IMG/VR virus record: IMGVR_UViG_3300029499_000043
Strand: one strand, 5' to 3'
From: a virus
Lineage: Duplodnaviria > Heunggongvirae > Uroviricota > Caudoviricetes
Length of the DNA: 4,982 nt
The position numbers and the translations under genes were made by a program. Positions 102-4,307 of this stretch are shown here, piece after piece. How positions within the stretch are numbered: the stretch's first letter is position 1; every line of letters starts with the position of its first letter. The notes beneath the pieces are model-generated. The model worked only from the letters and a program-made list of their open reading frames with translations. It had not been told where the DNA came from and ran no database searches.

Positions 102-503
102 TTATCCCTGATAAAATGCCAGTATGCGCTGCATAACTTCACTCATCCGGCACTCGCGACAGATTATGTTTAGGCGACTGTCGTAGCGACGTATTTCTCC
201 ATCAGGTAACGACCAGATAAGGTCTGGATCAACCACAGCTGTTTTCTTCACCTTTGCCCTCGAGAGTTTTTTGCGGGCGTTTTGCCAGTCCTTACGCGCC
301 TGTTCAGACGGGAATAACCCGTAGCCGGAGTTGTATACATCGCCACTGGCTACCAGCTCTCTGGCAAGAACGCTCATCAGATATCTAGTCGCACCTGTTT
401 TAGCTTCCAGTTGCCGTAACGTCTCACGACCGCTCTGGCGCACGAGTTCCACCACCTGCCCTTTAATTTTTTCCCGCTCTTCTTGTGTAAAAACTTTTGC
501 CAC
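102..503 (-). CDS. Hypothetical prophage protein, 133 aa, basic; last gene of the replication module. Function not recognised.
   Basis: Intact ORF in the track. The start codon is GTG at 503..501, preceded by a strong Shine-Dalgarno (AAGGGGGA, about 3-4 nt upstream). It lies 40 bp downstream of the replication gene on the same strand. No motif I can name. Confidence 0.55.
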   Translation of the reverse strand: MAKVFTQEEREKIKGQVVELVRQSGRETLRQLEAKTGATRYLMSVLARELVASGDVYNSGYGLFPSEQARKDWQNARKKLSRAKVKKTAVVDPDLIWSLPDGEIRRYDSRLNIICRECRMSEVMQRILAFYQG

Positions 504-543: not shown

Positions 544-1509
544 TTATCCTCTGAAACCAGGCGGAATTTCTGTATCCGGTTCAGAAATATGATTAACACA
601 ACGCTGTACAGGTGAACGCCCCAGGCGGATGACCAGTTCGTCCCATTTTTCGCGGAGCTTTGACGGGCTCATGATGTTTTTTACCCAGAATGGATCCCGC
701 TGTACCCGACCAAACATTTCACAAATTTGTCTGTGGCTTCTGCCATCCAGCATCCGCATTGTGCGCACATCATTGGCCCAGACAGTCCAGTTAGGCTCTT
801 TTGGTCGCATGATCTCGCCATCATCACTGGCGGCCTGTTCGTAGAGACCCACGATCCGCCCCCATATCCACTGCGCACACGCCAGATCCTCCTGGCTACC
901 CCACTGGCGTTTTTTCGCACTAAACACAACTGCGCCAGGGTGCCGGATTAAAAAATCCTGTTCAGCCGTCTGCGGGTCCGGTTGCGAAGCTTCCGGACGA
1001 AAAGTGTTTTTATTCTCTGTAGTAATCTCTGTTGTATTCTCTGTAGGATCATCGGGCCATTTTGACCCGATGACATTGGGTCGTTTTGAACCAATGGAGC
1101 GTTTCATTTTGACCTCTTCCATCGTGTCATTTTGACCTGATGGAGCGGCGCATTTTGAACCGATGGATTCGCTCAATTTGCCATCATCTAAAAGCTCGCT
1201 TCCATAGTTAATCGTGTAGAAATTGGTCATATCGCGCTTTGATTTATTGAGCTTTTCACAACGCAAAAGCCCCAGCGTTTTCAGACTTGCAAACGCGCGC
1301 TTTAACGTTGACTCTGACCAGAATGGGAACTGTTCCAGCCATTGTTCCGTTGTGTTGTAAATCCAGCGAACACCATCACATTCCATGCCGGAATTGGTAT
1401 CTCTCAACCAGTAATGCAACTGCTGCAACACAATGGCTTCATTTAAGCCAATCTTCATCGCAAGCTGTGTGTTTATAACCAGTGGGCGTTCAGCAAAAAG
1501 AAGGCTCAT
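544..1509 (-). CDS. Phage replication initiation protein (lambda O-like / replisome organiser), with an N-terminal helix-turn-helix region and an internal iteron-encoded linker. The track ORF starts at TTG 1563; the more likely start is ATG at 1509..1507 (MSLLFAERPLVINTQLAMKIGLNEAIV...).
   Basis: 339-codon ORF in the track. The N-terminal segment resembles the DNA-binding domain of phage replication initiators/replisome organisers. The gene contains five direct repeats (iterons) and an AT-rich repeat block, as the lambda O gene contains ori-lambda. It sits immediately downstream of the cII-like gene, the canonical lambdoid position for O. Confidence 0.75.
   Translation of the reverse strand: MSLLFAERPLVINTQLAMKIGLNEAIVLQQLHYWLRDTNSGMECDGVRWIYNTTEQWLEQFPFWSESTLKRAFASLKTLGLLRCEKLNKSKRDMTNFYTINYGSELLDDGKLSESIGSKCAAPSGQNDTMEEVKMKRSIGSKRPNVIGSKWPDDPTENTTEITTENKNTFRPEASQPDPQTAEQDFLIRHPGAVVFSAKKRQWGSQEDLACAQWIWGRIVGLYEQAASDDGEIMRPKEPNWTVWANDVRTMRMLDGRSHRQICEMFGRVQRDPFWVKNIMSPSKLREKWDELVIRLGRSPVQRCVNHISEPDTEIPPGFRG
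1011..1047. repeat. Three tandem 12-bp repeats (TATTCTCTGTAG / TAATCTCTGTTG / TATTCTCTGTAG) in an AT-rich tract next to the iterons. Candidate DNA-unwinding or accessory-factor element of the origin.
   Basis: Read directly from the sequence. Encodes the repetitive peptide TENTTEITTEN in the initiator linker. Its position relative to the iterons mirrors the iteron plus AT-rich layout of ori-lambda. Confidence 0.45.
1058..1172. repeat. Five iteron-like direct repeats (candidate origin of replication) embedded in the replication-initiator coding sequence. Consensus on the + strand is CATTTTGA(A)CC-N-GATGG.
   Basis: TTTTGA cores begin at 1060, 1084, 1107, 1130 and 1154, giving a regular 23-24 bp spacing. 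On the coding (minus) strand they translate to the repeated peptide motif SIGSK / IGSK. A sixth degenerate copy may lie at about 1173-1188. Confidence 0.6.
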
Positions 1510-2011
1510 AATTCCATCCAGCTTTTTGTTGGTATTGCTGTCGATACGCAAGTTTGAAAGCAATTGCTTTTTCTATAAGTTCGTCAGTTTCACGATCCAC
1601 TACGGCAGGATCAGCAAAAAGCAGTCCGGACTCCACCACATCGCCATATTCTTTGTTTAACCCGGCGATCATGTACGTGATGCTTTTTCCGTCACTAATT
1701 TCACGATACAACCTGAAATCATTAATCCGGATAGCCTCCATAATTGCAGGCACTAGCGCCGTGAACTTTTCACGCTTATCCCTGGTGTCGATAGCCTTCC
1801 AGCGTTCGAATATCTTCACTCGATTAACGCCAAGCGCTCGCTGATCAACCGCGCCACCTTCATCTGTGACACGCTGAACATCGATGTTCGGGCGCTCTTT
1901 CAAAGCCCAGAATGCTTCAGTGATTAATATCGTCGCCTGCTCCTGTGTCATTCCTGGTCGACATATCCAGGCATCCAGAGCCTCACGAGCCTGTTCAGGA
2001 GTGATTTTCAT
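1490..2011 (-). CDS. YdaT-like (CII-like) prophage regulator, 173 aa. Likely corresponds to the full-length form of the ydfX region of Qin.
   Basis: ATG start at 2011..2009; intact ORF. It lies directly downstream of the cro-like gene on the same strand, in the cI-cro-cII order. The 3' end overlaps the replication gene start by about 20 nt and the 5' end overlaps the dicC-like stop by 17 nt. The YdaT family assignment is from recollection of the protein family, not a search. Confidence 0.7.
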   Translation of the reverse strand: MKITPEQAREALDAWICRPGMTQEQATILITEAFWALKERPNIDVQRVTDEGGAVDQRALGVNRVKIFERWKAIDTRDKREKFTALVPAIMEAIRINDFRLYREISDGKSITYMIAGLNKEYGDVVESGLLFADPAVVDRETDELIEKAIAFKLAYRQQYQQKAGWNYEPSFC

Positions 2012-2222
2012 TGTTCAACCGCCCCGCCCGCTTCGTCTTACGATATTCGTCATAAACCTTGGGATCATACAGAAGCTCGCCGCCAGATGCCTCCTGTAGA
2101 CGCATCGCGCGACCTTCAGGAACCAGCTCTTGCCATTGAGAAACAGCAGATGGGTCAACGCCAGCAGCTTTCGCTACTTTGGCTTTCGTACCGTAAAAAT
2201 TAATTACGTCTGATTTAAACAT
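1995..2222 (-). CDS. dicC: Cro-like small DNA-binding regulator (DicC/YdaS family), 75 aa from ATG 2222 (MFKSDVINFYGTKAKVAKAAG...). The track ORF begins at an upstream TTG at 2249.
   Basis: Shine-Dalgarno GGAGG about 4 nt upstream of ATG 2222 on the minus strand. Divergent from the repressor gene. The C-terminal segment (LVPEGRAMRLQEASGGEL...YDPKVY...NNENHS) matches my recollection of DicC. Size about 76 aa, as for DicC. Confidence 0.75.
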   Translation of the reverse strand: MFKSDVINFYGTKAKVAKAAGVDPSAVSQWQELVPEGRAMRLQEASGGELLYDPKVYDEYRKTKRAGRLNNENHS

Positions 2223-2299
2223 CGCACCTCCAGTATTGAGTTTTCTCAATGCTAATCACTCAAGGAATCTCAAGTCAAGGGTTATTAAGATATCTAAAT
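2223..2299. promoter_or_regulatory. Divergent promoter/operator region between the cro-like (dicC) and repressor (dicA-like) genes. Contains operator-like motif copy A, TTGAGTTTTCTCAA, at 2236..2249, and CTCAAG direct repeats.
   Basis: 77-bp intergenic region between divergent starts. Motif A is an inverted repeat (TTGAG-TTTT-CTCAA) that recurs twice upstream of ydfA (2772..2785 and 2809..2822). Confidence 0.55.
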
Positions 2300-2707
2300 A
2301 TGAACGAGAAAACTTTAGGTCAACGCATTAGAGAAAGACGTAAGCAGGTAGGTTTAAGTCAAAACGGTTTAAGCAAAGCTGCTGGCGTATCTGGCTCATC
2401 AATTTCATTATGGGAAAGTGACCATACAGCCCCGCGCGGGCAAAATTTGCATCGCCTCGCCGAGGTATTGCAATGTTCACCAACCTGGATACTGTTTGGC
2501 GACGAGGACAAAACACCAGCTCCCCCTGTTTCACTCGATAGTGCCTTAGACTTATCGGAAGATGAGTTAGAGATGCTGCGTTTGTATCGCGCACTTCCTA
2601 AATCAGAGCAACAAGCACAACTCAGCGAACTCCGCGCCCGCGTTGAGAATTTTAATCGCCTGTTCACCGAGCTATTAGAGGCTCGCAAACGCAACAAGCA
2701 TCAATAA
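2300..2707 (+). CDS. dicA: DicA-like HTH (XRE-family) prophage repressor, 135 aa from ATG 2300 (MNEKTLGQRIRERRK...). An alternative upstream ATG at 2249 would give 152 aa.
   Basis: The N-terminal region has a clear helix-turn-helix signature (QRIRERRKQVGLSQNGLSKAAGVSGSSISLWESD). The VLQCSPTWILFGDEDK segment and the C-terminal region match my recollection of DicA. The 135-aa length equals that of DicA. No strong Shine-Dalgarno for either start, so the start is uncertain (possibly a leaderless or short-leader transcript, as for cI). Confidence 0.8.
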   Translation: MNEKTLGQRIRERRKQVGLSQNGLSKAAGVSGSSISLWESDHTAPRGQNLHRLAEVLQCSPTWILFGDEDKTPAPPVSLDSALDLSEDELEMLRLYRALPKSEQQAQLSELRARVENFNRLFTELLEARKRNKHQ

Positions 2708-2899: not shown

Positions 2900-3055
2900 A
2901 TGGATACTATCGATCTTGGCAACAACGAATCTCTGGTGTACGGCGTGTTTCCAAACCAGGACGGCACGTTCACCGCAATGACGTATACCAAAAGCAAAAC
3001 GTTTAAAACCGAAAATGGTGCCCGTCGCTGGCTGGAAAGAAACTCAGGTGAGTGA
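2900..3055 (+). CDS. ydfA: YdfA/YdaF-family small prophage protein (DUF1391-like), 51 aa (MDTIDLGNNESLVYGVFPNQDGTFTAMTYTKSKTFKTENGARRWLERNSGE).
   Basis: Internal ATG of track ORF 2744..3055. Shine-Dalgarno GAGG at 2891..2894, 5 nt upstream. The 51-aa size and sequence match my recollection of the YdfA/YdaF family. First gene downstream of the repressor on the early-left side. Confidence 0.8.
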   Translation: MDTIDLGNNESLVYGVFPNQDGTFTAMTYTKSKTFKTENGARRWLERNSGE

Positions 3056-3056
3056 T

Positions 3057-3632
3057 ATGGATTTCGACACAATCATGGAAAAGGCTTACGAAGAATACTT
3101 CGAAGGCCTTGCCGAAGGCGAAGAAGCTCTCAGCTTCAGTGAGTTTAAACAGGCACTCAGAATAAGAATGCGCTCTCACAATGACGCGGAGCACAAATAT
3201 GAGAAGCAAAATCAGACCGCAGAAAATTTTGTTCTGGAACCCGGAGAAACGCTTTTCAAAATTCCCGTTACGTGCCCCATTTGCGGTTTTACATCAGAAG
3301 AACTTGACGACTCCTGTAACAATCAGGAAACAACCAAGTATGTCGAAGATGATACCGAGTGCGCACGAAGAACGATTATATCCACGAGTCCAAACTCCAG
3401 GACCAATAAATCTCACTTTGAGAGGGTGATTAATCCACTCCCCCAAACCAATAAAAAAGATGCCGGAGGACAAAAAAACCAATGGAACAACGGGATATCT
3501 GTCAAAAAAAGACGTTCCATTAAAGACAAACAACGCAGCGCCAACAACTGTAAGCGCTTTATACCAGTAATCAATTTTCATGTTCTTAAGCGGATTTATT
3601 GGTGGTTGCGACATTGCTTAATGAATCCTTAA
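3057..3632 (+). CDS. ydfB/ydfC-like early gene(s). One uninterrupted frame from ATG 3057 (MDFDTIMEKAYEEYFEGLAEGEEAL...) with a second in-frame ATG at 3168 (MRSHNDAEHKYEKQ...). The true 3' extent is uncertain: the C-terminal 80 codons are K/N/R-rich low complexity over A-tracts.
   Basis: Shine-Dalgarno AGGTG 6 nt upstream of ATG 3057. The start is 1 nt after the ydfA stop, which suggests coupling. In K-12 this region is annotated as two small genes (ydfB, ydfC), as far as I recall. Here no stop occurs until 3630..3632. The tail contains poly-A runs at 3453..3458, 3472..3478 and 3504..3510. Confidence 0.5.
   Translation: MDFDTIMEKAYEEYFEGLAEGEEALSFSEFKQALRIRMRSHNDAEHKYEKQNQTAENFVLEPGETLFKIPVTCPICGFTSEELDDSCNNQETTKYVEDDTECARRTIISTSPNSRTNKSHFERVINPLPQTNKKDAGGQKNQWNNGISVKKRRSIKDKQRSANNCKRFIPVINFHVLKRIYWWLRHCLMNP
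3294..3614 (-). CDS. Candidate small membrane protein, 106 aa, with three predicted hydrophobic helices, antisense to the 3' part of the ydfB/C-like frame. Possibly a superinfection-exclusion or holin-like protein; possibly an artefact.
   Basis: ATG at 3614..3612 with AAGGA about 11 nt upstream on the minus strand. Hydrophobic segments are ALTVVGAALFVF, VVPLVFLSSGIFFIGLGEWI and ALGIIFDILGCFLIVTGVV. Caveat: an antisense reading of lysine/asparagine-rich A-tracts automatically yields Phe/Leu-rich hydrophobic stretches. Confidence 0.3.
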   Translation of the reverse strand: MSQPPINPLKNMKIDYWYKALTVVGAALFVFNGTSFFDRYPVVPLVFLSSGIFFIGLGEWINHPLKVRFIGPGVWTRGYNRSSCALGIIFDILGCFLIVTGVVKFF

Positions 3633-3891: not shown

Positions 3892-3949
3892 TTTCTGGTG
3901 ACGTTTGGCGGTATCAGTTTTACTCCGTGACTGCTCTGCCGCCGTTTTT
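3892..3949 (+). ncRNA. dicF: DicF small regulatory RNA (Hfq-dependent antisense inhibitor of ftsZ translation), including its intrinsic terminator: stem GGCGG 3907..3911 with CCGCC 3939..3943, then T-tract 3945..3949.
   Basis: The sequence TTTCTGGTGACGTTTGGCGGTATCAGTTTTACTCCGTGACTGCTCTGCCGCC followed by TTTTT matches the roughly 53-nt DicF RNA as I recall it, almost base for base. It lies in an ORF-free stretch immediately upstream of dicB, as in Qin. Confidence 0.85.
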
Positions 3950-4118: not shown

Positions 4119-4307
4119 ATGAAAACGTTATTACCAAACGTTAATACGTCTGAAGGTTGTTTTGAAATTGGTGTCACTATCAGTAACCCTGTATTTACTG
4201 AAGATGCCATTAACAAGAGAAAACAAGAACGGGAGCTATTAAATAAAATATGCATTGTTTCAATGCTGGCTCGTTTACGTCTGATGCCAAAAGGATGTGC
4301 ACAATGA
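4119..4307 (+). CDS. dicB: DicB cell-division inhibitor (acts with MinC on FtsZ), 62 aa (MKTLLPNVNTSEGCFEIGVTISNPVFTEDAINKRKQERELLNKICIVSMLARLRLMPKGCAQ).
   Basis: Strong Shine-Dalgarno GAGGA at 4107..4111, 7 nt upstream of ATG 4119. The 62-aa length and sequence match my recollection of DicB. Located downstream of DicF. Confidence 0.9.
   Translation: MKTLLPNVNTSEGCFEIGVTISNPVFTEDAINKRKQERELLNKICIVSMLARLRLMPKGCAQ

Follow-up and report, generated by a model that had tools for sequence, protein, structure and literature searches.

The stretch analysed here, a window of 4,982 bp from the IMG/VR virus record IMGVR_UViG_3300029499_000043, is by its gene content the immunity and early-replication region of a Qin-type lambdoid E. 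coli prophage. Its minus strand carries a gene for an O-like replication initiator, and inside this gene lie two adjoining sets of DNA repeats, a 23-bp iteron array and three 12-bp repeats, which we examine as a candidate replication origin. RefSeq labels the gene "hypothetical protein" and leaves the origin without annotation. The 321-amino-acid (aa) product nevertheless matches phrog_391, "replication initiation O-like", almost end to end (E 3.1e-92, residues 17-321 on positions 11-298 of the 298-position profile), and its ATG at 1509 agrees with the annotation of the isolated sister phage HannyBb and with the start (MSLL...) of all homologues. The parts of the gene and of its product, the latter drawn in part from an AlphaFold2 (AF2) model built on 76 sequences with its per-residue confidence score (pLDDT), are the following.

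544-1509, minus strand: O-like replication initiator gene, 321 aa, from the list of open reading frames (ORFs), with the candidate origin inside
1180-1509, minus strand: N-terminal winged-helix domain, aa 1-110 (AF2 pLDDT 80-93), presumed to bind the iterons
976-1179, minus strand: predicted disordered linker, aa 111-178 (AF2 pLDDT <50), carrying the iterons and the 12-mers
1050-1188, inside the minus-strand initiator gene: iteron array of six abutting 23-bp units, five good and one degenerate, from repeat finding and anchoring on the CAAAAT core; in gene order 1166-1188 (degenerate), 1143-1165, 1120-1142, 1097-1119, 1074-1096 and 1050-1072
1011-1046, same gene: three 12-bp repeats, gene-sense TACAGAGAnTAC (1011-1022, 1023-1034, 1035-1046), from a repeat search; presumed DNA-unwinding element
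619-963, minus strand: lambda-O-like helical C-terminal domain, aa 183-297, from BLASTP, tblastn and AF2 helices
547-606, minus strand: C-terminal tail QRCVNHISEPDTEIPPGFRG, almost a copy of the final 20 residues of E. coli DnaT

Anchored on the CAAAAT core, the iterons follow one another at 23, 23, 23, 23 and 24 bp (mean about 23.2). An earlier sequence-only reading of this DNA had described five evenly spaced iterons about 23.5 bp apart; the array itself is real, while the count becomes six, one of them degenerate, and the mean spacing is slightly shorter. Tandem Repeats Finder recovered both periods, the one of 23 at 1084-1167 and the one of 12 at 1014-1046, and a repeat search returned 23-nt units at 1050-1072, 1074-1096, 1120-1142 and 1143-1165. 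Iterons and 12-mers all lie within the minus-strand ORF 544-1509, as had been claimed. Read on the gene-sense strand, the units are partial palindromes of the form CATCGGGTCA-AAA-TGACCCGATG around CAAAAT; three of them have arms that agree at 8-9 of 10 positions, the remaining three at 5-6 of 10. The consensus CRTTTTGAMCNRATGR has four mismatch-free matches in the window, all of them within the array, against 0.24 expected, and none of 200 shuffles reached four. Across the whole of the 45-kb HannyBb genome, the iteron pattern matches perfectly nowhere outside the O-like gene, and no second iteron cluster was found as an alternative origin.

The AT-rich triple 12-bp repeat reported next to the iterons was recovered at 1011-1046, where the GC content of the gene is at its lowest (27.5% at 1000-1039). 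The same 40-mer, 1000-1039, is also the least stable of the initiator gene (-44.6 kcal/mol against a mean of -55.0, standard deviation (sd) 3.6), and it comes right after the last iteron. In HannyBb the 12-mer cluster occurs solely beside the iterons. Moreover, the TACAGAGAnTAC 12-mer is conserved in elements from E. coli, Klebsiella, Bacillus, Peribacillus and Staphylococcus (including L006, L014, L028 and L032), and this conservation of sequence appears to exceed what a mere AT-rich melting region needs. CTG is the recognition trinucleotide of E. coli primase, and the enterobacterial 12-mers present CTG on the complementary strand. The 12-bp repeats could act through their specific sequence, for instance in single-strand binding or in priming.

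Both sets of repeats are also translated. The iterons occupy codons 107-153 and the 12-mers codons 155-166, so that aa 107-166 of the disordered linker are encoded by repeats, and the linker, which the sequence-only reading had presumed to be flexible, is indeed predicted to be disordered (pLDDT <50 at aa 111-178). The repeats might then have been selected as a repetitive flexible protein linker (SIGSK, TEN/TTE), with the DNA repeat as a by-product; the translation does hold SIGSK three times and TEN/TTE three times, and a predicted disordered linker is a common setting for peptide repeats. The 23-bp period, however, is not a multiple of 3, so the iteron copies are read in three reading frames: three same-frame copies give S/V-I-G-S-K, whereas the other two of the five good copies give PSGQND and EEVKM. 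The earlier statement that the DNA repeats are mirrored as peptide repeats thus stands for the SIGSK copies and fails for these two, and the peptide repeat is a by-product of the DNA repeat. Codon-position identity, computed over nine Enterobacterales genes, points the same way. The folded N-domain has the usual protein-coding pattern (0.88, 0.95 and 0.57 at positions 1, 2 and 3), the iteron array is flat (0.86, 0.88 and 0.83), and the 12-bp repeats have their lowest value at position 2 (0.88, 0.70 and 0.85), where their sole variable base falls and gives N, I, S or T. Relatives with different peptides keep the DNA core. Since copies stand in three frames and third codon positions are conserved to the same degree as the first two, selection appears to act on the repeat DNA and not on the peptide. 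Selection for a peptide repeat is thus very improbable, and these frame and codon-position data largely refute it.

The array is not a peculiarity of one prophage. The phage mEp460_4F5 (78% DNA identity) has it in the same register, as do Klebsiella phages with a different C-terminal part in their initiators, and it also occurs in Citrobacter, Raoultella, Enterobacter, Izhakiella, Trabulsiella and Morganella. More distant N-domain relatives (43-57% identity) have a 22-23-bp array in the same place in the gene, in which the CAAAAT centre is constant and the arms are changed on both sides. Their iterons are as follows.

Klebsiella phage ZX1: GGGGCAAAATGCCCC
Moraxella: CAGTGCAAAATGCAC, at least seven copies
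Bacillus: TGTTCAAAATGAACAG
Staphylococcus phage P954: GGGACAAAATGGCCC
Staphylococcus phage BM31: CGTATCAAAATGATACG
Listeria phage: GACCCAAAATGAGCC

Most of these arrays are then followed by short repeats of the ACAGAGA type. Arms that differ between lineages around a constant centre are what one would expect where a dimeric DNA-binding domain binds. The sequence-only reading had named absence of the repeats from functional homologous replication modules as evidence that would count against it; the array is instead found in HannyBb, the mEp460 variants, the Klebsiella phages and the distant relatives, and isolated, complete phages carry the initiator/repeat element. These comparisons also bear on the idea that the repeats have no function and arose neutrally, through replication slippage or tandem duplication that a tolerant linker allowed. 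Copy number does differ among alleles, one class being without 31 aa (four units) and another having a fourth 12-mer; on the other hand, array register and core are kept across genera and across Gram-negative and Gram-positive elements, and the array is more conserved than synonymous sites in the neighbouring domain. We regard neutral slippage as the least probable of the explanations considered, as it is contradicted by this cross-genus conservation.

Other arrangements occur among the relatives. In L036-L038 (about 1840-2000; Deferribacterales and Proteobacteria metagenome-assembled genomes (MAGs)), a second tandem copy of the N-domain replaces the iteron array. SfIV gp41 (L007 1627-1790) and Klebsiella phage Kp4877-4 (L009 1638-1760) share the C-terminal two-thirds of the initiator and have HTH_36 as N-domain; their in-gene array consists of five or six copies of GTCAAAATCTGAC with a 15-bp period, a similar core in another phasing. 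Natural E. coli and Shigella loci (among P0018-P0023, P0100, P0127, P0130 and L033) also hold iteron copy-number and frameshift alleles of the initiator. The 290-aa variants are without exactly 31 aa, that is 93 nt or four units; P0100 has the fourth 12-mer; in P0130 about two iteron units are gone and the frame is shifted; and P0127 and a Shigella flexneri locus (L033 1835-1850) have a frameshift in the first good iteron, which in the Shigella DNA is an extra A in the A-tract. Such alleles point to recombination among the iterons and to decay within cryptic prophages.

The arrangement is that of lambda in most respects, as the sequence-only reading had proposed; O-like gene, C-domain homology, order and place of the repeats and predicted disorder of the linker all agree with an origin inside O. 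In lambda, too, the initiator gene contains the origin, at the stretch coding for a linker that joins two domains, with iterons at O codons ~117-145 and the AT-rich region just downstream, the same order and relative place as the iterons and 12-mers here. Both origins have four to six iterons spaced by ~20-24 bp, and the iterons share their build of arm, A-tract and inverted arm (TCCCTC-AAAAC-GAGGGA in lambda, GGGTC-AAAAT-GACCC here). The least stable 40-mer of the lambda O gene also comes right after the last iteron (-43.0 against a mean of -54.7, sd 3.9), and the sense strand of the low-stability block is purine-rich in both (62% here, 67% in lambda). The C-terminal domains are homologous, as in BLASTP initiator aa 147-294 align with lambda O 135-270 at 34% identity (E 3e-27), and tblastn matched the initiator to the O proteins of 933W, 434 and phi80. 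Unlike lambda, no P gene follows, the next gene being DUF977/Ren-like, and unlike lambda O the present initiator carries a DnaT-like C-terminal tail, has a DNA-binding domain that is not Phage_rep_O, and goes with a different iteron sequence.

The N-domain indeed stands apart. No Pfam family covers aa 1-105; up to E<=10 there is no Pfam match at all, to Phage_rep_O (PF04492) or otherwise, while lambda O matches Phage_rep_O with 5.7e-36. The idea that the N-domain is homologous to lambda O was rejected on an hhalign profile probability of 0.1% and this missing Pfam match. With its own iteron, and an N-domain that has neither Phage_rep_O nor profile similarity to lambda O, the distinct initiator specificity suggested from sequence finds support. 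Searched as a profile against PDB sequences, the N-domain matched no solved structure and no Rep chain. In the AF2 model its elements run helix-helix-hairpin-helix-helix-hairpin, and Foldseek with this model placed 4pql and the Rep-DNA complex 5kbj near the top, with weak E-values. We take 4pta and 4pql to be RepA_N proteins, as reportedly described by Schumacher et al. 2014; their depositors' titles read "Replication initiator protein; MDR initiator". The N-domain is predicted to be a winged helix, its best structural match being, on the model, a staphylococcal plasmid replication initiator.

RepA_N initiators of the pSK41 type offer a second parallel. According to a review of staphylococcal plasmids, pSK41 Rep is a protein of 319 aa whose central aa 121-199 form an origin-encoded, dispensable linker and whose C-domain contacts host DnaG (PMC5703833). 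The three-part plan of about 320 aa is the same here, with a winged-helix N-domain, a central origin-encoded linker and a C-domain for host replication proteins; in both, the repeats lie centrally within the initiator's own gene, in RepA_N bound by the N-domain and here in the linker-coding part. In predicted structure the present N-domain is closest in fold to that group, yet it has no sequence match to Pfam RepA_N or to solved chains. The C-domain is lambda-O-like and not DnaD-like, and the element is a phage and not a plasmid. A third comparison is with the "replication initiation / DnaD-like" proteins of Staphylococcus, Listeria and Bacillus phages (such as P954 orf20 and vB_SarS_BM31), which share the N-domain (43-51% identity) and carry, at the corresponding position of the gene, 22-23-bp iterons built on a CAAAATG core, then ACAGAGA-type repeats. 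They differ in their DnaB_2/DnaD-like C-domain, in the helicase and loader genes that follow, and in having no DnaT-like tail.

Taken together, we consider it very likely that 1000-1188 is the replication origin of this lambdoid (Qin-like) E. coli prophage, placed inside the linker-coding part of its own initiator gene; iteron binding, unwinding, helicase recruitment and origin activity are what we infer from the arrangement. Winged-helix dimers of the N-terminal domain would bind the 23-bp palindromic iterons (arms CATCGGGTCA and TGACCCGATG around the A-tract), and five or six abutting sites would fold into a bent nucleoprotein complex resembling the lambda O-some. This complex might strain and open the neighbouring AT-rich 12-bp block (1000-1046), upon which the lambda-O-like C-domain and the DnaT-like tail would recruit the host helicase machinery. 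Transcription through the gene from the cro-side promoter may aid activation, as in lambda.

Several points weigh against an active origin at this position. Two units, 1097-1119 and 1166-1188, have poor dyad symmetry (5/10), and the AT-rich block, with just 68% A+T, is milder than many unwinding elements. The N-domain is without a Pfam family and has just fold-level similarity to proven iteron binders, and no clear array was seen in some of its relatives (L034 and L036-L038). The searchable literature yields no experiment on this initiator family and nothing specific on its origin. Finally, since many chromosomal copies are decaying, as the deletion and frameshift alleles indicate, this copy need not be active.

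The iterons could also be genuine initiator-binding sites with a mainly regulatory or competitive role and not the start of replication. They might let the initiator gene regulate itself, titrate or "handcuff" the initiator, or enable a resident and often defective prophage to exclude superinfecting phages that share its replication specificity. The distribution of the element would fit such a role, as the initiator gene has a match in 3026 of 5426 complete E. coli genomes, over half, mostly in prophages, and many copies with truncated or frameshifted initiator genes keep their iterons. In addition, one report describes cloned lambda origin segments as inhibitory to rep-lambda phages (PMC3349717). 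Titration alone, however, needs no adjacent low-stability repeat block, yet such a block accompanies the iterons in every case and with the ori-lambda polarity, and the HannyBb genome offers no other iteron cluster able to act as origin. We therefore hold a mainly regulatory role to be unlikely. Regulatory or exclusion roles are compatible with origin function, and the two may coexist.

How an origin of this kind would obtain its helicase brings us to the tail. In phmmer searches against PDB it matched the DnaT chains 2ru8_A, 6aep_A and 9zbt_D with E 2e-4 to 4.5e-4; 14 of 20 residues are identical, and both segments stand at the extreme C-terminus. In the AF2 model this tail, after the helical C-domain, is disordered. 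The tail alone is shared with E. coli DnaT, whose N-domain and three-helix bundle are absent here. Some phage records label the initiator as DnaT; as a full DnaT it was rejected, since it scores 16.3 bits on NF002770 against a cut-off of 201 and covers profile positions 160-179 only. The complete HannyBb genome has no annotated helicase loader (P, DnaC), helicase (DnaB) or primase, and the downstream ORFs checked for a loader proved to be QueH and PerC. The same [IV]PxGFR[GST] end occurs in other enterobacterial initiators without a loader (mEp460_4F5, SfIV gp41 and that of a Klebsiella ST147 phage). It is absent from the initiators of lambda (O), BcepMigl, KF4, P954 and BM31, after which come genes for P, DnaC-like, IstB-like or DnaB proteins. 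It is also absent from the ZX1 initiator, whose downstream ORF has no Pfam match.

The role of the tail in DnaT itself is unsettled in the literature. A 2026 preprimosome paper assigns no function to it, and older work linked the last 18 DnaT residues to trimerisation and cooperative binding of single-stranded DNA. Moreover, an O-like protein with the DnaT C-terminal motif, DopC, has already been described (Brezellec et al. 2017, PMC5509034); DopC was reported without iterons, which the present gene has. Because of this unsettled role and the DopC precedent, the DnaT-tail link is a lead and not a result. The tail-bearing C-domains might have been taken for two unrelated kinds, a view rejected since the Klebsiella one is Pfam Phg_2220_C, which HHpred links to the lambda O C-domain (Brezellec et al., PMC5509034); this link suggests that they may be distant relatives. 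On a tentative view, which we think possible and would not favour over its negation, the gene could be a "solo-initiator" module, in which a RepA_N/DnaD-like winged helix, a lambda-O-like C-domain and a tail copied from DnaT replace the phage helicase loader, with sequence-specific 12-mers. The tail would then connect the origin complex straight to the host primosome, via whichever partner the DnaT tail contacts.

An origin inside an initiator gene is a textbook concept. Here it follows the lambda plan, with a different origin-binding domain and its own iteron. The module is one of the commonest replication regions of E. coli prophages, and the iteron definition (CATCGGGTCA-AAA-TGACCCGATG, 23-bp period) together with the unwinding block provides an annotation rule for phage initiators of both Gram-negative and Gram-positive hosts. 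It also leads one to expect that co-resident prophages fall into groups of replication specificity (incompatibility or exclusion). The DnaT-like tail gives a handle on helicase recruitment by a lambdoid phage without P, as well as on the role of the DnaT tail, and this tail and the cross-phylum conservation of the 12-mers are the parts most worth following up.

The remaining features of the window place the initiator in its neighbourhood.

102-503, minus strand: DUF977/Ren-like protein gene, the next gene after the initiator, from Pfam and PHROG matches
1490-2011, minus strand: YdaT/CII-like gene, upstream of the initiator (Pfam YdaT_toxin; phrog_163 CII-like)
1995-2222, minus strand: Cro-like (P22-Cro-like) gene, upstream of the initiator (Pfam P22_Cro)
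2297-2707, plus strand: DicA-like helix-turn-helix repressor gene, from a domain match
2900-3055, plus strand: YdfA (DUF1391) gene, from a domain match
3893-3944, plus strand: DicF antisense RNA (Rfam RF00039, 72.5 bits)
4119-4307, plus strand: DicB gene (Pfam, E 1.9e-40)

The Cro-like, YdaT/CII-like and initiator genes belong to one rightward-type operon, whose transcription crosses the candidate origin. The YdaT/CII-like stop at 1490-1492 and the initiator ATG at 1509 give a 20-nt overlap, which suggests translational coupling. DicF and DicB make up a Qin-type cell-division inhibition cassette that adjoins an intact-looking immunity and replication region, and two long ORFs overlap on opposite strands at 3057-3632 (plus strand, 191 aa) and 3294-3614 (minus strand, hydrophobic, 106 aa), both without a Pfam family. 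Given the YdaT- and DicB-type neighbours, the oriJ/YdaU type of the Rac prophage was considered and rejected, as YdaU of K-12 Rac is DUF1376, followed by DnaC-like YdaV, and belongs to a different initiator family.

The initiator gene is found 100% identical in many E. coli chromosomes, and the copies in the isolated phages HannyBb, mEp460_ev081 and PhiR42_1 share 96-97% identity with it. MAG contigs assigned to Veillonella parvula, Bacillota and Collinsella (L015, L016 and L029) encode an N-domain 100% identical to that of the E. coli prophage, an identity that is probably due to binning contamination. In L015, the one of the three whose downstream DNA was read, the same iteron array comes with a fourth 12-mer.

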